A DNA stretch of 63,015 nt, the filler included, from Collodictyon triciliatum (Eukaryota): the NCBI GenBank assembly GCA_043381765.1. It is 13 parts of 13 records of this genome, joined end to end, with 100 filler letters (N's around TTAATTAATTAA, not from the genome) between each part and the next. Parts side by side here need not be neighbours in the genome. Positions count along the whole stretch, not along the records: positions 10,148 to 15,122 come from JBHJMP010005590.1; 12 more parts are not named here. One strand, 5' to 3'. The position numbers and the translations under genes are program-made. Of the stretch, positions 10,537-15,122 are shown piece by piece; position 1 is the stretch's first letter; the number at the start of each line of letters is the position of its first letter. The notes beneath the pieces were generated by a model that worked only from the letters and a program-made list of their open reading frames with translations, had not been told where the DNA came from and made no database searches.

Positions 10537-13500
10537 TCACGCTGCTCCGTAAAACTCCATCTTTGATGAATTCTCGTTCAAACTCAGGTGTTTTGAGGTC
10601 TGAGGGACAATGCGCACCCCGTGCAAGATGGTGGCCAAGCTATGCCGTTATATGAATCACACTTCGTATATTGTCATGGCATCAAGCAGCTGCGTTCTTT
10701 TAGAGACTAACATGAGAAAGGTAGATATTCGAACCTGGCACATTCCAGAAGCAAGTAAAACGAAAAGAAGAGCTCGAAACTGTTGAAGAAAATTTCGTGC
10801 TTGAAGTTGTTGAACATGAATGCCGCACCATTGAAAATGAAAAAAGTTGCTGATGTTGCTTGAATGCGAATAATCTATGCAAAAACGAGTTTAAACAGCG
10901 TAATTTTCATATTTTTATTTTTTTGGATGCAAAAAGTATTTTCCATATTCGCTCGATAATTGATTTCTATTACCTTTTTAATTAAAGTTGTTCCGCTACT
11001 ATTTGCTGCTCGTAACCGATGGCGGATGAGCAATCCAAGTACCAGAAAAAGGACAGCTAGTGCAATACTAGATAAAATTTTATGAATAACAACGTATCCT
11101 TCGTTTGTTAATGCGATACCAATAAAACCTTCCATCGAATACAAATAGAAAAGACCAATGCCATGTAAATCCATCATGAAAGGATATGGCGGTGGTTTAG
11201 CACACATATATTGTAAAACTGTAAGCAAATTCAACATTTGGCTATTATATCTGCAAGACAAGTATTCATTACATACCCCATCACTGCCAAGAATATGTTT
11301 CCGTTCAGGGAAATGACCTGGGTATTGGATTCACTCGCAGTTGCAAACATTATCCACATAATTATTAGGTGCCCAAAGATTACTAGCAGTCCACCAAAGA
11401 AATAGTATCGTGATTTACTCAAGAATCCGCCGATAATCGAAGTAGAGAGAAGCGCATCCATCCTGTATTCGTTCATATAGGTCATGAAGCCTTATTTATA
11501 TATAAAAACCCAATCAAGACAAGAAGCAGTGCTAGATATTTACCACAAGAAGGCCATCAGAGAGTGGACCATGTATAAAAAGAAGAACGGGAGAGACACT
11601 ATGATTAAAAGTCCCGTCTGAGGAATGGACCCGAGAGAGTCTGTCGCTGCCATCACAAAGTAGACCAGCCGCACTAATTTAAGTGCGAAAAATTGGTTCA
11701 TAATATGGAAAGTGTATGTAAAAGAATGCATCCCTCATCACAGAAGGAAACAATTTGCATGTTGTTCGAATGAATCATATCTCTGTTTGTTTTGGTCACG
11801 GTGTCAATCACTCACGTAATACTAACAATATGACTCCAATATGGAGGATGAAGGGAGTAGGGTTCGCTTTTGTCTTTTTCAGCGTGAATGACCTTGATAA
11901 CGGATGAACTTGGCGTATGACAATAATCAAAAGCAGGCAATATACTGCCGAGTACACAGTAAACAGAATGAACTTTTCGGCAACCCAGCTTTTCGTACAC
12001 TCTGCAGATGGCTGAACTGGCTCGAGGTAGATGGCAAAGTCAGACTATACAATAATCAATTATTATTTTTTTTAGATAGAATCAAATCAGAAGAAAGGAA
12101 TATCGAAACTTTTCTTTTCCTAAAAATTAAATTTAGAACATTCCTGAGCAAAATGTGGTCAAATGACCCTTGGATGATTAGATTATACCAAATGTGTGCT
12201 GGTGCAGACGGCCTGATAGAATTGTTTCTCTTTGTTTTTTTTACTCTGGTAACTCAGTCCATCACTGACCCATGATTTTGTGGCTTCGTTCCACGATTTG
12301 CACGTTGGGACGGAGTAAATACATACAACCTCTTGGAAATCTCCTTGGCACATGAAAACATTTTCGGGTTTGCGGGTTGCTATTGGCAAAAGCATATACA
12401 AAAACAAAATCTGAATATTAAGAGGAACATGAAATTTGTTAAGAAAGATTATTTTTTTATTAAATAGACATGTAAGAAGTTTACCAGTGTATGTCGCCAG
12501 TACAAAATTATTTGAATGTGTCAAAATTCAGGTGTCAGCAATTTACCTTCTTGTGGGACATAATACTCGCTCCCAGTGAATGTAATTGTTGCAATAGATT
12601 GGGTTGCATTTATGCCAATTGGTCGGCCGTCATCTCCATTCAGCTCTATCGTAGTTACGGGAGACACGACGAAGCTAATGAACAAAGTCTTCTTGAGTAG
12701 ACGAAAGGTTGGTGGGTCACATGAATCAATAACAAAAAAATTCAAATAAAACAAGTACAATAGTGCAGAAAATTGTTACTTGTCCACACTGTTCGTTCCA
12801 TTCAGAGTGTTTATATTGAGATGAGAGACAATAATTTTCAAAGTTACTGCGCTCGTGTTCGAATTGCACAGGTCTGTCGAGTTTTTTATTTTCACTACAA
12901 TATCCTCCCCAAACTGAATTATTTTGCTCGCATTTTCTGGTTTTGCTGATATTCATTTGTATCTTTTAGAAAAAAAATTAAGCCGTCAAATATGAGACAA
13001 CAATTTATTTTTTTGCTAATATACCCATACGAATATATGTTAAAAATTATCAACAAAAAAAAGAAACAAAGATAATACAAACTTTTCTCCACATAAATAC
13101 CACTCGTATTTGTCAAAACAAAGACAGGTGCTCCTGCAGAAAATGTCAGCAGGCCTTGGCATATCATATCGGTGATGCTTTTCAGGTCACAATATTCTCC
13201 GTTCAAACGAATCGTGTGGGATGTGATATCATGTGATGTAGTCATAAGATTCTGGTACGTTTTACATTAAGTGCCTTGATTGTGCAATATTTTTGACAAA
13301 AAAAAAAAAAACGAAACTATTAATGACCGCTGTGATGATAAAGAGAATCAAATTAAAATACAGCAGCATCGATCGTATGCAGTCCCTCATTTGATCCAAA
13401 CGTCGCCATTTGATGAGCATTTTCACAGCTGGTGATTAGATTAGTATTGTTGAATCCTTTCAATTCAAAGTATAGATATAGAGCGGCTGATATGAGGCTC

Positions 13501-14922
13501 GGTAAGGCTGGTTGCTGAGTTGGGGCTGTGTCAAATCGATTCAGTACAGAAATTTTCAGATGTTCACTCATCTTGAGCCTTGATTCCAATCTCGAAGCAC
13601 TCCCGACCGAATCTTTATGATATAATGTAATAAGTCACAAGTATTTTAATGCAAGTTTTTTTTTATTAAAATCTACAGTATGTTACATCAATATACCATT
13701 CGACGTTCCGATTTCGCTGTTGAGAATCTTTGATAGACGAATAATTTCTGCAGTTGCGTTTCTTTTTTGGGGAATTGGAGAGAGAGAAAAACATCTTACT
13801 TTTACTCACGCACAATTTTTTTCGATTAACCCTTCGGGTTTTCATAAGAGCTATGTTCATTCGTTTAACTCAGAAGTTGGGGAGAGAATACTCACACATA
13901 ATATTTCTCTTGGACCAAGGGGTCCAATACCTCAGTAATATAGCATGCAACATAGATATGAGACGGGTCATTCTCGGAGCAGGCATTCGAAGCTTGATTC
14001 GATCGCAATCCGTATATGACCTTATTTTTTCTGTATAGATGCACATACTCATCCGAGAGAGGTGGTGGCCCAAGCACATCATAACCGTCTGCAGATAATG
14101 AATTCAAAAGTAAGTTCCAGTTGATATTTTGAATTTAGATAATAACGTAATAATGCTTCAATAGTATTCATGCTAACGTGAAACTAAACCCAGGTTCTTT
14201 TGAATGATTGCTCTGTTTTTTGTCGATTCGCCAATAATTTTGTAACGCGATGATTGTGTGGTTGATATGGTTGTTTCTGAAACTGGTAAGGATCTCTGTT
14301 GCCAGCTTGCTCCGTTCCAAGAGTATGCATAGATACTGTTTTGTGCTCCTTCTGATAGGACCTGGACTATGCCGCTGGCATAATACACGCTTTTTCCGAA
14401 ATACTGATTCGAAAAAGATCCGTCTATTCTTGAATGCAAAAAGAACTGAGTGTCGATGCGGTTGTAAATGTAAACAGCTCCAGAGTTTTGCAAAGAGGCA
14501 TCAGAAGCACATTTCTCGCATCCAACCACAACGACTTTGGAAGCAACAGCAACCGATGAACCAAACTCCACATTTTGATACGGGGTCGGCATTATGATTC
14601 GCTGGGTTTGAATCCACTCATCAGCATTCGAAAGTGTAAATAAATAAACTGCACCAGCCTTATCCAAATCATCAACTATTTCAAAGGGAGCACTAACTAT
14701 TGCATAGCCTTCCATAATGGAGACAGCTTTACCAAACCCCATATGGATTTGTACTTGCTTCGGTTGAAGCATTTGCATCACAGTCCACGACAACTTGGAG
14801 GTTTTCGTGTTTCCATTCGCAAGGAAATGGGATGCGAATATTGATTCCAAAAAGAAGGAATAAAGAATAAGTCGCGCTATGCGACAACCTTGAATGCTGC
14901 CCGTTGGGTGGAACCTCGCCAT
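10537..14922 (-). CDS. Adhesion-GPCR-like receptor: FG-GAP repeats + GAIN/GPS + TOM1/THH1/GPR137-like 7TM
   Basis: N-terminal hydrophobic segment and three FG-GAP-like repeats (FGKAVS...AGAVYLF; FGSSVAV...SGAVYIY; FGKSV). GPS motif PTCKSWNEATKSWVSDG...VCTSTHL|SDFAIYL across exons 12189-12345 and 11815-12044. Seven hydrophobic helices splice in phase to TGA at 10537, including LRLVYFVM and SLPFFFLYMVHSLMAFLW. Junctions between 12960 and 13900 are not fully resolved. Confidence 0.75.
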
Positions 14923-15028
14923 CACGCTTCGTTGTCCTTGTATGGGTCGGGCGAGCGTACTTCTTTCTTTATTTGATGTTGTCTAATTTAAAGAGTTGAG
15001 TTTAAAAGGACAGGCTTGCTGGAATGCC

Positions 15029-15030
<2 letters not shown>

Positions 15031-15122
<92 letters not shown>
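15031..15122. repeat. (TAT)n microsatellite at contig end
   Basis: Perfect trinucleotide array. Confidence 0.95.

Follow-up and report, generated by a model that had tools for sequence, protein, structure and literature searches.

The joining of a GAIN domain to a seven-transmembrane (7TM) bundle is described as a holozoan event: a 2025 study (PMC12716839), in its accessible text, places the first link between the two in stem holozoans and treats the combination as restricted to Holozoa. The accessible part of PMC3251606 gives the GPS motif of adhesion GPCRs (G-protein-coupled receptors) as occurring in no other GPCR family, and that of PMC11697300 names PKD1-like proteins as the only other family with a GAIN domain. 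GAIN domains as such are recorded from Dictyostelium and Tetrahymena (PMC3321182), and among protists the accessible text of PMC13197933 covers choanoflagellates only. Here we analyse a gene within a 63,015-nucleotide (nt) stretch of Collodictyon triciliatum DNA (assembly GCA_043381765.1; the whole stretch is called the window below). The original prediction, made from the sequence alone, was of an adhesion-GPCR-like receptor that joins integrin-type FG-GAP repeats, an autoproteolytic GAIN/GPS motif and a 7TM domain of the TOM1/GPR137 type. We find a single spliced gene whose product carries, in one chain, an FG-GAP head, a motif like the GPS and a 7TM domain of the TOM1/GPR137 family, a reading to which we assign a probability of about 0.93.

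The gene lies on the minus strand and occupies its own contig of about 5 kb (window positions 10148-15122). In the spliced reading of the genomic sequence, 14 exons spanning 14922-10537 give a protein of 929 amino acids from 2790 nt of coding sequence, in which the sole stop is the terminal TGA at 10539-10537; the introns are all GT..AG and measure 81-209 nt. Transcript support comes from contigs of two runs of the same study, X1 and X2, which are presumed to be RNA, a presumption backed by the spliced joints that they contain. Such joints are present for 10 of the 13 introns (2, 3, 5, 6, 7 and 8 in X1; 9, 10, 12 and 13 in X2), and none was found for intron 4 among the contigs of either run. 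No contig of a third run, X3, aligned to the gene. Intron 8 splits the GPS-like motif, and the joint 12044-12189 in an X1 contig creates the sequence HL|SDFA, just as had been predicted for the spliced message. As to intron 1, the X1 contig that covers exon 2 has a loose end of 12 letters; this string has a single occurrence in the 63 kb window, precisely where exon 1 ends (14178-14189), and the X1 contig on exon 1 halts at 14178. The stop at 14173 therefore lies within the intron. The original prediction had named the link between the FG-GAP exon and the GAIN exons as its weakest step, had allowed that the former might be transcribed separately up to its own stop at 14173, and had proposed transcript evidence across 14922-10537 as a check. 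That evidence now joins the introns listed above and, together with a homolog that carries both regions in one chain, ties the head to the rest. The exon 1 contig covers 14178-14868, from residue 19 onward, and the hydrophobic leader and three blades are therefore contiguous in the transcript.

Intron 11 was placed at 11276-11068, in preference to 44 other frame-keeping options, because this choice gives a gap-free alignment to the homolog P0128 described below. Differences between transcript and genome are enriched there (5 in 209 nt versus 5 in 930; Fisher p 0.023). Silent changes make up 7 of the 13 substitutions in the X1 contigs, where a fraction of 0.226 would be expected (p 0.014), an excess that points to selection on the reading frame. 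Intron 11 is also the longest, at 209 nt, and its retention would terminate the protein inside the fifth transmembrane helix (TM5). Upstream of the gene, a candidate splice acceptor at 14983-14984 lies in frame 60 nt 5′ of the ATG, and the contig runs into an (AAT)n repeat at its end on this side; a further exon may lie beyond the contig end.

The homolog came from a phmmer search with exon 8 against 1.84 billion representative sequences, which gave four matches at E≤0.001. One is P0124 (EP00002_P035112, 694 amino acids) from Diphylleia rotans, a CRuMs flagellate; its cluster mate P0128 (EP00002_P035113) has 1126 amino acids, and both are unnamed transcript open reading frames (ORFs) of EukProt. 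The other three, HYR-repeat proteins of echinoderms, were set aside as chance sums of weak stretches. In P0128, Pfam finds in a single chain and in this order FG-GAP_2 (four stretches, E 9e-25), the GPS-like motif (E 0.012, 16.5 bits versus a cut-off of 22.5) and THH1_TOM1-3 (PF06454; E 1e-10, 41.7 bits versus a cut-off of 25); nothing further is found at E≤1, thus no 7tm_2, GAIN, REJ, PKD or PLAT. The Collodictyon protein is 34% identical to it over 650 amino acids (E 2e-127), with 37% identity in the helical region, 29% in the strand-rich region, 36% in the GPS and 37% in the 7TM domain, and the tblastn matches of P0128 follow the gene in order. An architecture search among protist proteomes had been suggested with the original prediction; the phmmer search with exon 8 has turned up the same domain order in one chain, and on these sequences the architecture is judged to be real in two organisms. 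P0124 starts within a stalk and, unlike P0128, has neither leader nor FG-GAP head; it is either a genuine headless isoform or an assembly that is short at its 5′ end.

Seven hydrophobic peaks lie between residues 661 and 901, of which TM6 and TM7 are weaker (1.2-1.4). Lysine plus arginine count 5, 2 and 6 on the predicted inner loops versus 0, 0 and 1 outside, a positive-inside pattern that puts the N terminus out and the C terminus, with a tail of about 26 residues, in. The PF06454 match of P0128 spans positions 19-264 of the 273 in the model, across 249 residues, and lies above the curated cut-off, and 7tm_2 found no Pfam match on 12 window exons either. The family assignment is carried over to the Collodictyon protein from P0128, to which its 7TM domain is 37% identical. 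As a lead only, the clusters of the ESM Atlas nearest to exon 9 are THH1/TOM1 and GPR137_N, at 0.80. Taken together, the 7TM domain is assigned to the THH1/TOM1/GPR137 type and not to 7tm_2, in agreement with what had been proposed.

At the other end of the protein, exon 1 matches Pfam FG-GAP_2 with 52 bits versus a cut-off of 23 (E 8e-14). An AlphaFold2 (AF2) model of the head, built with 51 sequences, has three four-strand blades with a predicted local distance difference test score (pLDDT) mostly above 90 at residues 51-210, followed by a low-confidence tail, and a Foldseek search with this model places integrin alpha chains on top (E 3e-6). The integrin-type head of the original prediction is therefore upheld in its fold, by FG-GAP_2 and the integrin alpha matches, and curtailed in its extent, with three confident blades and not seven. 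A sequence search with exon 1 gave 287 matches, and none of the 120 listed carries GPS or PF06454; among the matches listed, most are bacterial or unnamed FG-GAP_2 proteins. A model of a two-copy head complex scored 0.00 and was used neither for nor against any reading.

Between head and bundle, the motifs of the original prediction are found at residues 532-552 (VVSPVTTIELNGDDGRPIGIN), 599-613 (CKSWNEATKSWVSDG) and 630-643 (VCTSTHL|SDFAIYL). The H-L-S triad, His635-Leu636-Ser637, sits 24 residues N-terminal of TM1, and Trp602, Trp609, Cys599, Cys631 and His635 are conserved with P0128, as are the Phe at +3 and the Gly preceding position S12.50. Among PDB sequences P0124 has a single match at E≤10, to ADGRF1 (E 0.0037), which spans the C-terminal part of GAIN and the GPS. 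The ESM Atlas cluster nearest to residues 45-415 of P0124 is a GPS cluster, at 0.91, whose set makes up 18 of the 30 matches. Propensity and moment analysis gave a slight helix-then-strand trend only, and NCBIfam gave low-complexity matches only. We infer that residues ~284-643 would fold as a GAIN domain, first helices and then strands, ending in the SDFAIYL strand. Of the predicted GAIN/GPS segment, then, the H-L-S motif stands and the ADGRF1 and Atlas leads point the same way, whereas the GPS score stays below its cut-off and a model at pLDDT 36 brought no match to a GAIN fold.

The word autoproteolytic, by contrast, is doubtful. In the GAIN domain of CL1, two disulfides hold the scissile kink (PMC3321182). 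The equivalent of the C801-C832 bond is kept as Cys599-Cys631; both partners of the second are absent from the Collodictyon protein and from P0128, in both of which Gly-Leu replaces Gly-Cys, and the Gly-Cys disulfide is also treated as a GPS determinant in the accessible text of PMC13062082. The same text describes a Phe at S10.49, just ahead of the first Trp, that positions the His and is required for efficient cleavage, and reports that ADGRB2, which has HLS and a Ser at S10.49, is barely cleaved. At the equivalent position neither Phe nor Tyr is found: the Collodictyon protein has Ser601 and P0128 has Thr, and the adjacent Gly is kept. With the catalytic His deprived of its Phe partner and one GPS disulfide gone, cleavage would be slow or absent, and self-cleavage is probably poor or does not occur. 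Eight extracellular cysteines are common to the two proteins, among them Cys592, which precedes the scissile bond, and Cys652, which follows it. The likely pairs are 285/297, 397/439 and 599/631; these leave Cys592 and Cys652 unpaired, and the two could therefore link the halves of the protein. A Cys592-Cys652 disulfide may thus keep the halves joined even if the chain is cut.

Several observations weigh against this account. On the transcript side, no single contig spans the full length of the gene, and a single study supplied both runs. One X2 contig retains intron 11 although the two introns downstream of it have been removed. In exon 2, an X1 contig of depth 5.5 has an A-run with an additional base at 14024; this insertion, either an error or a null allele, would end the reading frame at residue 271. 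The three-blade head makes no closed propeller, and the signal-like stretch is weaker than that of P0128 (hydropathy 1.93 versus 2.89); a weak signal stretch and a short head may mark the window copy as a paralog in decay or put to another use. Diphylleia rotans is the one homologous species that turned up. As weak evidence on range, a word-index search with exon 8 raised 3 candidates, none of which proved a match, a search with residues 40-694 of P0124 scored 7998 candidates and returned only P0124 itself, and two metagenome scans gave no relative.

The domain assignments have adverse points of their own. The GPS score falls below the Pfam cut-off in the Collodictyon protein and in P0128, and is 16.7 bits versus 22.5 (E 0.011) for exon 8 alone. 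The Pfam GAIN and REJ models have no match on P0128, and a four-row profile against the PDB returned no GAIN structure and two irrelevant matches at E>1. A single-sequence AF2 model of P0124 (pLDDT 36) has six long helices and then a non-helical stretch, and Foldseek found no match to it at E≤0.001. The first Atlas match has only 153 of 256 features in common, and the alignment of P0124 to ADGRF1 extends weakly through TM1-3. Searched singly, the TM exons of the window gave no PF06454 match. Cys583 of the Collodictyon protein is an alternative partner in the predicted Cys592-Cys652 pairing. Finally, in split-ubiquitin assays given in the accessible text of PMC2530877, Arabidopsis TOM1 did not bind GPA1, and the TOM1-like proteins Cand3 and Cand5 did.

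We regard the anatomy as firm: the gene structure, the one-chain order in D. rotans, a 7TM of the TOM1 family, a head of three blades and the H-L-S triad. Beyond it, a membrane sensor with this architecture, in which a predicted GAIN domain relays a signal from the head without shedding, seems to us slightly better than an even bet. In such a sensor the head would bind a surface or an engulfed particle, and binding or pull at the head would pass through the predicted GAIN domain, probably uncut or held together. The last GAIN strand and the 24-residue stalk would hand the change on to the TOM1-type bundle, which would act on a GTPase partner, either a G-alpha or one of the Rag/Arl8 type that family members are reported to use; the site would be the cell surface or a food-vacuole membrane. 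The module would have been joined to the TOM1/GPR137-type 7TM independently of the holozoan adhesion GPCRs. A stronger version, of a CRuMs adhesion-GPCR analogue in which the GPS strand controls a TOM1/GPR137 7TM and a new disulfide holds the two parts together on either side of the cut, is tentative, and we rate it as possible rather than probable.

Full function in the manner of an adhesion GPCR, in which the chain would be cut at HL|S, the head pulled away and the released SDFAIYL left to act as a tethered agonist of the TOM1-type 7TM, is in our view somewhat unlikely. The two proteins keep the H-L-S triad and one disulfide, as well as both Trp, the Phe at +3 and the Gly ahead of S12.50, the spacing of 24 residues to TM1 would suit it, and latrophilin mutants that lack the Phe at S10.49 retain residual cleavage (accessible text of PMC13062082). 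This has to be set against a Ser or Thr at S10.49, as in cleavage-resistant ADGRB2, the loss of the Gly-Cys disulfide and the extra cysteines on either side of the cut, which could block release; our literature search, moreover, found no tethered-agonist pocket reported for TOM1/GPR137 domains. A true but very divergent class B2 receptor, handed down since before CRuMs and Amorphea parted, would account for ADGRF1 as the sole PDB sequence match, with an alignment that reaches TM1-3. It is contradicted by PF06454 above its cut-off over 249 residues, by the lack of 7tm_2 at E≤1 and by the TOM1/GPR137 clusters that neighbour exon 9 in the Atlas, and we give it next to no weight.

The site of action could instead lie inside the cell, in a mainly endolysosomal or food-vacuole protein like GPR137B or TOM1, with the GAIN-like region as a spacer, a head that binds engulfed matter and no adhesion. 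Nine N-glycosylation sequons in the outer part suit a lumenal face as much as an outer one, and plant TOM1 reportedly co-purifies with the small GTPase ARL8 (PMC3234234), which we count in favour. GPR137B, of the same 7TM family, is described as lysosomal and Rag-binding in the accessible text of a review (PMC7429791) and of PMC12716839. Yet the Ser/Thr/Gln stalk of about 130 amino acids and the additional blades of P0128 typify displayed surface proteins; this alternative overlaps the membrane sensor that we prefer, from which it differs only in site and output, and in its pure form we think it clearly unlikely. Nor do we expect, except at long odds, that the window copy is a degenerating paralog, still transcribed, whose family function went with the shortened head and the lost stalk. 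Three blades versus about five and a partial one in P0128, the missing stalk and the weaker signal stretch would fit such decay, as would the frameshifting base in one X1 contig and the intron retained in X2, but the frame of 929 codons is intact through 14 exons, silent changes are in excess and conservation is even, at 29-37%, over the GAIN-like and 7TM regions. The parts of the gene are collected in Table 1.

Table 1. Parts of the Collodictyon triciliatum gene, in window positions, with the evidence for each
Part	Position	Strand	Evidence
Whole gene, 14 exons, 929 amino acids (aa)	10537..14922	-	Contigs, spliced frame, P0128 alignment; P0128 tblastn matches collinear
Exon 1, aa 1-248: weak signal-like stretch, three FG-GAP blades, one degenerate partial blade	14178..14922	-	Pfam, AF2, Foldseek, X1 contig
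Exon 1 sub-parts: signal-peptide-like stretch aa ~15-36; FG-GAP blades aa 41-215	within 14178..14922	-	
Intron 1, 89 nt, includes stop at 14173	14089..14177	-	12-letter loose end unique to exon 1 end
Exon 2: short linker plus a Cys285-Cys297 segment that P0128 also has	13896..14088	-	Contigs, alignment
Exon 3: helical, GAIN-subdomain-A-like region begins	13697..13761	-	Joints on either side, alignment
Exon 4: helical region	13362..13612	-	Contigs, alignment; low-confidence P0124 model with six long helices
Exon 5: helical region ends, strand-rich region begins; preceding intron 4 without joint	13083..13251	-	Contigs, alignment
Exon 6: strand-rich, GAIN-subdomain-B-like	12780..12945	-	Contigs, alignment
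Exon 7: VVSPVTTIEL segment	12547..12674	-	Contigs, alignment
Exon 8: GPS-like motif through His635-Leu636	12189..12379	-	Pfam GPS E 0.011 (below cut-off), joints
Exon 8 key residues: Cys592, Cys599, Ser601, Trp602, Trp609, Gly613, Cys631	within 12189..12379	-	
Exon 9: Ser637 (putative nucleophile), SDFAIYL strand, Cys652 stalk, TM1, most of TM2	11816..12044	-	X1 joint 12044-12189
Exon 10: TM2 end and TM3	11544..11673	-	X2 joints; 52% identical to P0124
Exon 11: TM4 and first half of TM5; 3′ boundary inferred	11277..11462	-	P0128 alignment, clustered differences
Exon 12: remaining half of TM5, inner loop 3; 5′ boundary inferred	10974..11067	-	P0128 alignment
Exon 13: TM6 and most of TM7	10735..10874	-	Joints; 43% identical to P0124
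Exon 14, coding part: TM7 end, cytoplasmic tail of ~26 aa, TGA	10537..10639	-	X2 contig runs on to 10385

The window as a whole (1-63015) consists of 13 pieces of about 5 kb, the last of them shorter, joined by N runs and a TTAATTAATTAA linker. Because it is made of separate pieces, neighbours on other pieces are uninformative about the gene. Most of the pieces end in simple repeats, and their GC content is 0.29-0.45. The adjoining piece holds exons of a Ser/Thr protein kinase (8333-8940, minus strand; Pkinase E 1e-30), and an exon of the ribosome-biogenesis gene Utp11 lies at 44761-44991 (minus strand; E 1e-10). At 43275-43538 (plus strand) lies the C-terminal part of a lipid kinase of the PIP5K type (Pfam E 3e-4, short of the cut-off); a chance tblastn match to the GPS region, at 43413-43556 (E 0.31), belongs to this PIP5K C terminus and is not a second GPS.

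Our literature search found no description of GPS or GAIN together with a TOM1/GPR137 7TM, with thin coverage of subscription papers and with sequence tables of PMC12716839 that may contain such a case. A transcribed GPS with a TOM1-type 7TM in D. rotans and in this genome is an architectural counterexample to the holozoan-only claims and, because it uses a different 7TM, points to convergent assembly. It would make it possible to test directly whether GAIN coupling can be carried from one 7TM fold to an unrelated one, and offers a natural probe for how TOM1/GPR137 proteins switch on. If the stronger version above is true, GAIN-to-7TM coupling evolved at least twice, a GPS strand controls a 7TM family that is not known to use a tethered peptide, and the orphan TOM1/GPR137 family gains a built-in handle for locating its activation pocket. 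The surprise is tempered because the parts are all known, a brown-algal combination of REJ, GPS and six or seven TM helices is in print, and the GAIN fold is only predicted and its cleavage doubtful.

The closest relatives in architecture are the D. rotans proteins P0128 and P0124, which share the H-L-S triad, the eight extracellular cysteines and Gly-Leu in place of Gly-Cys. P0128 differs in having about five blades and a partial one, whereas the Collodictyon protein has three and a partial one, and in its stalk of about 130 amino acids (30% Ser, 13% Thr, 12% Gln), which the Collodictyon protein lacks. The blade fold of the head is common to integrin alpha, whose propeller is seven-bladed, with thigh and calf leg domains and a single TM helix, in contrast to three blades, no thigh or calf and seven helices here; in sequence, the head is similar to bacterial FG-GAP_2 proteins. 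Polycystin-1 and REJ proteins bear a GAIN domain. The polycystin-1 layout has eleven helices, whereas the Collodictyon protein and P0128 have seven and no REJ, PKD or PLAT match; the Collodictyon GPS, with its fewer cysteines, presumably resembles the polycystin-1 GPS. The 7TM family of THH1/TOM1/TOM3 and GPR137 is shared with P0128, above the Pfam cut-off, but GPR137 is described in the accessible text of PMC12716839 as having no domain outside the 7TM, whereas an ectodomain of about 640 residues precedes it in the Collodictyon protein. Ectocarpus Esi0130_0068, likewise from outside Holozoa, is presented in the accessible text of PMC4700764 as having a GPS, a long ectodomain and 6-7 TM helices by prediction; it differs in its REJ domain, no FG-GAP head is reported there and its TM family is left unnamed. 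Like the holozoan adhesion GPCRs ADGRL1, ADGRF1 and ADGRB2, the Collodictyon protein has an adhesion-type head, an H-L-S GPS before TM1 and seven helices. Those receptors have a 7tm_2 bundle and two GPS disulfides, whereas the Collodictyon protein has one such disulfide, no Phe at S10.49, an extra stalk cysteine after the site and a bundle of the PF06454 type, and it is found outside Holozoa. By inference it works like an adhesion GPCR, but its predicted 7TM family places it outside class B2.

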